DNA from: a virus
Taxonomy: Duplodnaviria > Heunggongvirae > Uroviricota > Caudoviricetes
IMG/VR virus record: IMGVR_UViG_2660237930_000002
Strand: one strand, 5' to 3'
Length of the DNA stretch: 55,858 bases
Shown one piece after another: positions 28,300 to 29,001 of this stretch. Below the pieces are notes generated by a model. The model searched no databases and was not told the DNA's origin. It saw only the letters and a list, made by a program, of their open reading frames with translations. The translations under genes were made by a program, and so were the position numbers. Position 1 is the stretch's first letter; each line of letters opens with the position of its first letter.

Positions 28300-28498
28300 A
28301 ATCTCACCTTAAAAAAATGCCCGGCGAACCGGGCGAACTGGAAGCAATGAGTTATGCCTTCCGTGGCTGTACTGGTTTACAGCATGAAGTCATCGCAATG
28401 GCGTCCTGCTGTAAAAAGGGCGGTGATAGTCCTTCAAGGGAAACCATCACCGCCAAGCACCTGGAACTTCTGGCATCACGGTCCTTAGGCGTGATTCT

Positions 28499-28575
28499 GG
28501 CGTGGCATGCAGGATTCGAACCTGCGACCAACCGCTTAGAAGGCGGTTGCTCTGTCCAGCTGAGCTAATGCCACA
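28499..28575 (-). tRNA. tRNA-Arg (anticodon UCU), argU-like, with encoded CCA
   Basis: Minus-strand 77-nt cloverleaf GTGGCAT-TA-GCTCAGCTGGACAGAGC-A-ACCGC-CTTCTAA-GCGGT-TGGTC-GCAGG-TTCGAAT-CCTGC-ATGCCAC-G-CCA; anticodon loop CTTCTAA. Confidence 0.9.
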
Positions 28576-28906
28576 ACGCTGAGAGCACTTAGCCTGTTAA
28601 GGCACCACACTTTGTCGCGGCTCCATAAATGCTCTCATCGTTGTACCCTCGTCTCTTCCGAGGTGTCACACCGAATCGCCGGGATGGTGAATCCCCGTGC
28701 GCGGAATAAAACCGCTCGACTTGCACATTCCGGCTACCTGGTTCGTTTGCCCGAGCAAGGGAGGGTGCCCCTTAAACGTATCCAGACCGCTATCGGCGCA
28801 TGTGCCATACGCCGTACTGCTCAAAATAAAAGCTCACTCCACCTGTTCAATTTAACGACAAGCCAGTCAGGTTAGTAACCGGAATGAACTCTTTGGTTAC
28901 CTGAAA

Positions 28907-28921
28907 GGTAATAATTTGTGC
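28907..28921. promoter_or_regulatory. Operator TTACC-tgaaa-GGTAA between terminase and portal
   Basis: Perfect palindrome; 12-bp direct repeat GGTAATAATTTG at 28917-28928 and 28969-28980 nearby. Confidence 0.5.
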
Positions 28922-29001
28922 GTTAAATGTCAACTATCTAAAATAAATAAATCATATGTGGTTAAATTGGTAATAATTTGATTGCGTACGGAGTCATTGA
29001 T

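Follow-up and report, generated by a model that had tools for sequence, protein, structure and literature searches.

A conserved structured RNA beside the tRNA-Arg gene of a Uetakevirus-type prophage and its relatives in lambdoid and P1-like phages

The prophage examined in this study, which is of the epsilon15/phiV10 type (genus Uetakevirus), carries a minus-strand ORF and a tRNA gene between the end of the large terminase ORF at 27834 and the start of the portal ORF at 29223. Beside the tRNA lies a stretch of about 300 nucleotides (28576–28900) in which a first-pass annotation found no credible ORF, and for which it offered three possible contents, namely the promoter of the tRNA, a degenerate second tRNA or a small RNA. 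This raises the question of what the stretch encodes. All coordinates given here refer to the window, i.e., the complete stretch of 55,858 nucleotides that was analyzed, in which the region from 27800 to 29300 is 96–98% identical to phiV10 and related coliphages. The comparisons described below show that the stretch beside the tRNA is a conserved structured RNA of the minus strand and not spacer. What is new at this locus is this widespread, unannotated RNA family, while the tRNA itself is ordinary.

The tRNA gene and its neighboring reading frames

The tRNA-Arg with the anticodon UCU (TCT) on the minus strand was confirmed at 28498–28574 both by ARAGORN and by the Rfam tRNA family RF00005 (71.7 bits at a gathering score of 29). 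Neither program reported more than this single tRNA in the window, and the proposed degenerate second tRNA is thus unsupported there. A comparison of codon usage, recommended in the first-pass annotation, revealed 8.5 AGA codons per 1000 in the phage part (19.9–55.9 kb) versus 2.0 per 1000 in the left 14.8 kb, which makes a codon-supplementing role of the tRNA reasonable; the terminase-to-head genes (25.7–33.4 kb) contain no AGA codon at all. As an ordinary tRNA with an encoded CCA in an AGA-rich phage, it resembles other phage-borne, argU-like tRNA-Arg(UCU) genes, from which it differs in being embedded in a conserved RNA unit.

The reverse-oriented ORF beside the tRNA is genuine as well. It spans 27925–28299 on the minus strand, encodes 124 amino acids, is homologous to phiV10p03 and epsilon15p50 and belongs to the Pfam family PF13876 (Phage_gp49_66; E = 1e-33). 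On the opposite strand, a plus-strand ORF at 28317–28568, antisense to the tRNA, matches PHROG 4647; this match is probably a propagated annotation artefact.

For 28576–28900, the reported lack of a credible ORF was borne out. Among 45 homologues, no frame is open in the majority of copies, the core lengths split 14/15/16 over the three classes modulo 3, and a Pfam search with the longest ORF of the stretch yielded no match. A protein-coding gene was therefore rejected on the grounds that indels do not come in threes, no frame is conserved and Pfam contains no match.

Structure, strand and conservation of the RNA core

The structured core occupies 28645–28815 on the minus strand and was defined by three alignments (A1, A2, and A4), by covariation and by a covariance model (R1). 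Read in the direction of the RNA, and with all features on the minus strand, it starts with helix P1 (CGGCRUAU-GGCAC-AUGYGCCG, 28814–28794), followed by P2, a variable hairpin closed by UCYG/CRGG (28786–28737), a conserved 19-mer, GGUAGCCGGAAUGUGCAAG (28738–28720), the variable helix P3 (about 28715–28701) and helix P4 (GGGAU-UCACC-AUCCC, 28695–28681). The P4 loop sequence CACC (28689–28686) forms a pseudoknot with GGUG (28672–28669), and helix P5 (CCUCG-GAAGAGA-CGAGG, 28663–28647) completes the core.

This structure was evaluated on MAFFT alignments that had not been fitted to any structure, with A1 comprising 45 copies less than 90% identical to each other and A4 comprising 62 copies including a divergent class. 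In A4, standard pairs were found in 94.0% of the cells, in comparison to 28–52% in controls in which the pairing was slid by one to three columns. Changes on both sides occurred in 13 of the 26 pairs (160 cells), and the covariation score was 0.308, whereas the slid controls did not exceed 0.086; the observed values were reached in none of 500 column shuffles. The outcome for A1 was the same. P1 corresponds to the hairpin that had been noted near 28794–28815, and this hairpin proved genuine, with a G:C pair in 30 sequences being an A:U pair in 31 others and further double changes. Three pair types occur across the copies in P4, and the pseudoknot covaries too (C:G to A:U), with UCACC/GGUGUGA becoming UAACC/GGUUUGA. 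A second proposed hairpin, ggaat/attcc (28703–28707 with 28727–28731), can pair in the window, but its attcc half, part of a variable hairpin, is missing from other copies; this pairing is confined to the lineage, lacks conservation and is not supported.

The orientation of the RNA, i.e., the minus strand of the window, follows from the conserved G-U pairs, which would be A-C on the other strand, and from the tRNAs near the core, which lie on the same strand in all 47 cases. Between the helices, the unpaired runs AGCGGUC, GGCG, and CCGGAAUGUGCAAG are highly conserved; the last of these is part of the 19-mer, which was invariant in the first ten copies derived from BLAST. Since most copies were gathered via conserved motifs, the invariance of these motifs is partly built in by the sampling. 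Model R1 found a single copy of the element in the window, with 154.8 bits. Folding of the single sequence is undistinctive for the core (z = −1.3) but distinctive for the whole unit (z = −4.6), and RNAalifold returned an alternative long-range pairing of GGCACAU with AUGUGC that involves invariant bases only.

Over 27800–29300, a search of Rfam 15 to E = 10 returned the tRNA above threshold and otherwise only noise (E above 2), as had been proposed as a check of the region, and a search at gathering scores of the window and of the leaders of 18 related loci yielded no family for the element. Likewise, we found no description of it in the literature and no Rfam entry. Of the three contents suggested initially, the small RNA comes nearest to these findings, but it was too modest a description for a core of about 190 nucleotides that sits in a unit of about 490 nucleotides including the tRNA and that belongs to a large family across unrelated phages.

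Distribution, expression signals and exchangeable modules

A sensitive blastn search with 28575–28990 as query yielded non-coding matches of about 80% identity outside the Uetakeviruses. These matches fall into the lambdoid phages mEp460, cdtI and Stx2c and Stx2a converting phages, into P1, P7, D6, SJ46, and RCS47, and into phages of Klebsiella and Enterobacter together with one phage reported on Stenotrophomonas. The piece common to all of them extends from 28815 to about 28628 of the window. Scans of IMG/VR with three different conserved blocks gave at least 120 matches each, and with the core alone as query, a match was found in 1843 of 5426 complete Escherichia coli genomes (34%), with up to four copies per genome and 554 places on plasmids. 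No RefSeq feature lies under the core among the matches listed. Some depositors' ORFs cover the element, for example mEp460_037. A scan of genome contigs used an over-degenerate 16-base pattern, returned mostly chance matches and therefore under-samples the taxonomic range; the 12 loci from it that were confirmed by the covariance model belong to Enterobacteriaceae wherever the taxon was read (Kosakonia, Escherichia whittamii, Phytobacter, Superficieibacter, Citrobacter, Kluyvera, and Klebsiella).

Across three unrelated groups of phages, the element is situated between repressor-controlled early promoters and strong terminators. For the window, the first-pass annotation placed an operator at the end of the stretch, and this site, GGTTACCTGAAAGGTAAT (28895–28912), indeed lines up with positions 2918–2947 of epsilon15, where the record annotates repressor and IHF sites. 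Three operator-like sites are present in the window at an expectation of 0.02, the other two being located at 21542–21559 and 47963–47980. The operator overlaps the −10 element of a candidate leftward sigma-70 promoter on the minus strand (28905–28933), which was found by reading the sequence and by a relaxed scan and which consists of a TTGACA −35 element (28933–28928), a 17-nt spacer and TACCTT as −10 element (28910–28905). A promoter candidate as suggested for the tRNA thus exists, albeit just beyond the stretch and overlapped by the operator. Its −10 element is weak (3/6) and the site falls below the threshold of the default promoter scan; the arrangement TTGACA-17-TACCTT, 89 nt upstream of the core, is common to 18 loci in the relaxed scan, and TTGAC is invariant in five Uetakevirus relatives (alignment A3). 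Transcription of the unit would accordingly be predicted to start near 28898. The default scan of 27800–29250 detected no promoter-like site, and thus none for the PF13876 ORF or between the two terminators preceding it.

These two intrinsic terminators were identified on the minus strand by a terminator scan. T1 (28409–28454) has a 14-bp stem followed by CUUUUUAC and a predicted folding energy of −22.8 kcal/mol, and T2 (28309–28334) consists of GCCCGGUUCGCCGGGC followed by AUUUUUUU and abuts the ribosome-binding site of the PF13876 ORF. As a tandem pair, the two are delimited as 28454–28419 and 28334–28319, and this pair is common to Uetakevirus-type loci. A third terminator found by the scan, T3 (27885–27904, minus strand), closes the leftward unit ahead of the terminase gene.

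A comparable layout is found among the non-redundant loci, where 55 of 124 have a promoter-like site (at least 9/12) in the 200 nt preceding the core, one of 124 has such a site inside the element, and 14 of 124 have one within 205 nt past the terminators; in 106 of 114 loci, a strong intrinsic terminator follows 300–800 nt past the core start. In phage cdtI, the order is the cI stop codon, a terminator, pL (TTGACA-16-CATAAT, 11/12), 46 nt, and the core. The entire early-left operon, with the excisionase at its end, lies behind the terminator that follows, with no other promoter detected, no N gene annotated in the record and no second core copy in the early-right operon. The core begins at the predicted transcription start in other classes. 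In phage P1, it is located between trnI and ban, within the C1-controlled ban operon, about 2.4 kb from the promoter and beside a tRNA, and no strong terminator comes after it. Each phage carries one copy of the core, and no protein family is common to the neighbors of the element across loci.

Around the core, several further modules were recognized on the minus strand. P0 (28830–28891), read by eye and compared with relatives, is a long hairpin and represents the same type of module as P6; its 5′ strand GAGUUCAUUCC (28891–28881) pairs with GGAGUGAGCUU (28840–28830), including three G-U pairs, as worked out by hand. The P0 of epsilon15 bears an insert of about 100 nt that is annotated in the record as an RNase III site. 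P6 (28574–28643), recognized by comparison of loci, is an extended helix, CAAC-GAU-GAGAGCAUU ... AAGUGCUCUC-AGC-GUUG, with a variable insert between its strands, and its last G is nucleotide 1 of the tRNA. It was found in 141 locus copies with 47 distinct strand pairs and inserts of 23–256 nt, and compensatory versions include GAGAGCA/UGCUCUC, AAGAGCA/UGCUCUU, GAGCGCA/UGCGCUC, AAAGGCG/CGCCGUUU, and AAGGGUG/CAUCCUU. In related loci, P6 is followed by P7, a GUUGUGG...CCACAAC helix around other inserts. The tRNA, whose acceptor stem starts with GUGG and ends with CCAC, occupies the P7 site in the window. Inserts of P6 and P7 in some related loci contain T-arm-like remnants (GGTTCGATTCC). The same tRNA-Arg is present in 29 loci, 226–290 nt past the core start and always on the same strand, and 89 of 135 loci have no recognizable tRNA near the core. 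P8 (28475–28495), a hairpin of the form AUCACG-CCUAAGGAC-CGUGAU that was read by eye and shows little covariation, is also kept in tRNA-less loci (e.g., L047, L071, L088, and L127). The 3′ end of the unit, consisting of P8, a GU-rich block and the terminator stem, is itself conserved.

Parts of the unit also occur separately. Phage P1 has the core only, with the flanking stems absent, and in two loci (L268 and L281) the core is reduced to its 3′ half (P3 to P6), with a promoter of their own immediately ahead of it. Epsilon15 is a deletion derivative that has kept the first 50 or so nucleotides of the core and has lost the remainder together with the tRNA; its downstream ORF is intact behind T2 despite this loss.

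Possible functions and comparison with known RNA systems

The readings of the function of this RNA family that are discussed here are based on the sequence comparisons described above. The one that we rank first, tentatively and at somewhat less than an even chance, is that the core is a cis-acting leader that would give RNA polymerase read-through of downstream terminators and would in this respect be functionally similar to put. This ranking is due to the layout, which is that of putL in phage HK022, and to the fact that put needs no phage protein for its action in cis on RNA polymerase (PMC9378689). Leftward, i.e., minus-strand, transcription would begin at the operator-controlled early promoter and proceed through P0, the core (P1, P2, P4 with its pseudoknot, and P5), P6, the tRNA-Arg(UCU), P8, the two strong terminators and the PF13876 gene. 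The core would act in cis on the very polymerase that makes it and confer resistance to later terminators (processive antitermination). Once repression is lost, the tRNA would be switched on, as would the genes behind the terminators. Both transcription of the unit and its antitermination activity are what we infer from this arrangement.

Several features of the loci would argue for such a leader. The core comes after pL in cdtI and after the operator-overlapped promoter in the window, and it lies within the C1-controlled ban operon in P1. Promoter-like sites appear more often upstream of the core (55/124) than past the terminators (14/124), terminators come after the core in 106 of 114 loci with the early-left genes of cdtI placed behind one, and some copies are followed by a canonical boxA, GCUCUUUAACAA, the binding site of Nus factors. 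The presence of one copy per phage together with the lack of a common neighboring protein family fits an RNA that works with host machinery. Against antitermination speak the weak −10 element of the promoter in the window (3/6), the failure of four tests to detect homology to put, and the size of the element, since a core of about 190 nt in a leader of 350–800 nt exceeds what an antiterminator should need, put having about 70 nt. The conserved 3′ end, with P8, the GU-rich block and the terminator stem, would rather suit a discrete stable RNA. The same direction is indicated by the core of phage P1, which sits in the middle of an operon about 2.4 kb from the promoter with no strong terminator following, and by the downstream ORF of epsilon15, which survives behind T2 although most of the core is gone. 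How large and modular the unit is, its conserved 3′ domain, the mid-operon site in P1 and the survival of the epsilon15 ORF would all fit an RNA acting in trans, and they would fit a scaffold for cargo as well.

A stable phage RNA acting in trans is the main rival, and one that we consider possible but rather unlikely. The early transcript would in this case be an "RNA operon" from which nucleases excise the core (e.g., RNase P cutting at the tRNA, and RNase III or RNase E at the stems P0 and P6), and the core would then act on the host, with RNA polymerase, the ribosome, an RNA-binding protein or a defense system as conceivable targets. The terminators would merely end the RNA gene, and the downstream genes would depend on leakage. 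Such an RNA would account for a unit with its own promoter and a 3′ domain conserved together with its terminator, for co-transcription with tRNAs, which are on the same strand in all 47 cases having one nearby, and for the P1 copy beside trnI in mid-operon. It would also agree with the very strong conservation of unpaired segments over three phage lineages and with the P1 helix, which in several classes forms a hairpin at the very 5′ end of the transcript or close to it. The early timing and the neighboring gene family PF13876, which we take to be linked to anti-defense, would suit a locus for host takeover or anti-defense. Against an RNA acting in trans speaks that the element is nearly always promoter-proximal and in sense orientation in early operons, with no scatter over other insertion sites. 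In N-less lambdoid phages, moreover, essential early-left genes lie behind its terminator, and the comparison of neighboring proteins yielded no identifiable target or partner.

Quite unlikely, in our view, is that the core serves as a scaffold, i.e., as a folding or processing aid for the maturation or protection of an embedded tRNA or tRNA-like cargo, with P0, P6, and P7 as processing or stabilizing stems like the spacer stems of rRNA operons. P7 in the window (GUGG...CCAC) coincides exactly with the upper end of the tRNA acceptor stem and encloses other inserts in other loci, P6/P7 inserts elsewhere hold the T-arm-like GGTTCGATTCC remnants, and the 3′ strand of P6 presumably resembles the boxA region of rrn operons, all of which would be compatible with a scaffold. 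Nevertheless, ordinary tRNA genes require no such element, about two thirds of the loci (89/135) have no recognizable tRNA near the core, and the phage P1 copy and the copies consisting of the 3′ half only do without these stems. Simpler explanations are very improbable, be it a protein gene in decay, a second but degenerate tRNA or a site that acts as DNA in recombination or packaging, since the depositors' ORFs such as mEp460_037 and the PHROG 4647 match of the plus-strand ORF at 28317–28568, a match that lies antisense to the tRNA and is probably an artefact, are outweighed by core lengths spread evenly modulo 3, the absence of an open frame and of Pfam matches, the single tRNA reported by ARAGORN and Rfam, and compensatory changes and G-U pairs (A-C on the other strand) that argue for an RNA of one strand.

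If the element is the cis-acting antitermination leader favored here, it would represent a second and larger RNA route to protein-free processive antitermination and would explain how early-left genes are expressed in many lambdoid prophages that lack N, Stx2c converting phages among them. With an action in trans, it would instead be a new RNA directed from phage to host. In both cases, an RNA family that is backed by covariation and that occurs in the workhorse transducing phage P1 as well as in 34% of the complete E. coli genomes has been missing from annotation and from Rfam, and spurious ORFs have been annotated over it. Its modular stems may account for the gain and loss of phage tRNA genes at this site (mosaicism). 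We regard the chances as evenly balanced that the element is either a second class of RNA, unrelated in structure, by which bacterial RNA polymerase is reprogrammed with no phage protein involved, or a new stable phage RNA with a host target, in both cases as part of a modular early "RNA operon" with exchangeable cargo such as tRNA-Arg at P6/P7, which has gone unannotated in about one third of E. coli genomes, with Stx2c and P1-type prophages among its carriers.

Among known systems, the put RNAs of HK022 and HK639 are the closest in layout. Reading of the HK022 sequence gave the order pL, putL, terminator, nun, and HK639 is annotated likewise. Like put, the element is promoter-proximal in the early-left operon of N-less lambdoid phages and is followed by intrinsic terminators before the early genes, a position also found in cdtI, where it comes just past the early promoter and ahead of the terminators with no N annotated. 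Put has no phage protein partner and works with the host polymerase (PMC9378689), and in some classes the P1 strands of the element (ACGGCG ... CAUGCGUCG) coincide with stem I of put. In contrast to put, with its roughly 70 nt and two stems, the core of the element has about 190 nt, five helices and a pseudoknot, is flanked by additional modules, occurs in P1-like and epsilon15-like phages as well, and is often fused to a tRNA.

None of four tests detected homology between the two. Model R1 had no match in HK022 20000–30000, which holds putL and putR, or in the whole HK639 genome, and when 41 element loci were searched at E up to 10 with a model built from 24 put sequences (R2), there was no match at the element. 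Local alignments of the element with put were no better than those of shuffled sequences, with p of about 0.014 to 0.4 over the alignment and block statistics, and a statistic on ordered blocks invariant in put gave 19–24 for the element at a background of 20.2 ± 1.5 (5992 windows), which is not significant. In 7.95 Mb, a pattern of four motifs had matches exclusively at put and element loci; it is discounted because it was designed after both families had been seen. The motif coincidences with put (ACGGCG...CAUGCGUCG, GCGG, and CGG(C)AAU), several of which are RNA polymerase contact sites in put (PMC9378689), are suggestive and without statistical support, which is why the element is not filed as a member of the put family. 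At most, it may work like put.

With lambda nut and the rrn boxA, the element shares its position in the leader of early operons. Some copies are directly followed by GCUCUUUAACAA (L092) or by GCUCUUUAAUAA (L036 and L137), a canonical boxA after the core being found in a minority of copies, and the 3′ strand of P6 starts with GUGCUCU(U/C). It differs in that the boxA-like run is paired inside P6, a helix that covaries, in most copies including the one in the window, in that no N is annotated in cdtI, the carrier examined, and in that nothing in nut or rrn leaders corresponds to the conserved core. Within Rfam, searches of 28575–28900 at E up to 10 yielded no match to ROOL, GOLLD, C4, IsrK, riboswitches or ribozymes. 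ROOL and GOLLD are large structured RNAs of prophages in Firmicutes that are often found beside tRNAs. The element resembles them as an ornate, phage-borne non-coding RNA near tRNA genes, whereas it is much smaller, resides in Enterobacteriaceae and is tied to early promoters.

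Reading frames and a candidate promoter beside the leader RNA

Antisense to both the tRNA-Arg(UCU) gene and the intrinsic terminator T1, and spanning the two, lies an 83-aa ORF (window 28317-28568, + strand), a homolog of the annotated phiV10p04 that is assigned to PHROG 4647 (E = 3e-54). This frame is probably an annotation artifact that has been propagated between records, and the same probably applies to mEp460_037, which is annotated over the core, i.e., the conserved structured part of the leader RNA. The adjacent ORF on the minus strand (window 27925-28299) belongs to PF13876 (N4 gp49 / Sf6 gp66 family), and its positional homolog in Klebsiella was labeled DUF2829 by the depositors. 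The anti-Thoeris protein Tad2 is counted within DUF2829.

On the other side of the element, a candidate rightward promoter (TTGTGC, 17 nt, TAAAAT; window 28916-28944, + strand) was read by eye. The leftward promoter lies back to back with it, the operator is adjacent, and the block AAATAAATCATATGTGGTTAAATTGGTAATAATTT downstream of this candidate is mostly invariant among five relatives. The predicted promoter might serve the gp3-portal operon.

tRNA-Arg(UCU), AGA codons, and tRNA-like inserts

AGA usage in the phage late genes, a comparison proposed in the first-pass annotation, is uneven: the tail and late genes use the codon frequently (8.3 per 1000; window 33.4-45 kb), and not one of the 2180 codons of the terminase-to-head genes is AGA (window 25.7-33.4 kb). 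Therefore, a benefit of the tRNA, if there is any, would be limited to a subset of the late genes. A Megablast search with window 27800-29300 also matched 64 Synechococcus phage records, presumably over the tRNA gene itself (window 28498-28574), in which case cyanophages would have a very similar tRNA.

T-arm-like hairpins, GGTTCGATTCC or GGTTCAATTCC, were found within the variable inserts enclosed by helices P6 and P7 at six related loci (L011, L012, L016, L080, L103, and L107), and ARAGORN called no tRNA for these hairpins. They may represent decayed tRNAs or tRNA-like RNAs.

Related loci and the modules of early-left leaders

The epsilon15 locus is a deletion derivative and not the ancestral state. 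Comparison of epsilon15 2552-2771 with window 28449-28779 revealed that a 331-bp block is missing; this block includes the tRNA as well as the greater part of the core, of which the first ~50 nt are still present.

Farther along the window, adjacent C4 antisense RNA and IsrK genes were identified with Rfam (window 47364-47548, - strand; 66 and 63.5 bits, respectively). The same pair is also located on the early-right side of mEp460 and cdtI, both lambdoid carriers of the leader RNA. An operator-like site is situated close to the pair (window 47963-47980).

In cdtI, a further long hairpin, ACAAAACAGAGAAGA...UCUUCUCUGUUUUGU (~2330-2240, - strand), lies beyond the terminator; it has the same general form as P6 and is directly followed by the first early-left gene. 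Core copies without P6 (L092 ~3345-3400; L036/L137; L049) are followed by a hairpin and the canonical boxA GCTCTTTAACAATCTGG, and in L372 this boxA string also occurs 3′ of a stem I of put, the antiterminator RNA of phages HK022 and HK639. Early-left leaders have the appearance of mosaics in which RNA modules are exchangeable.
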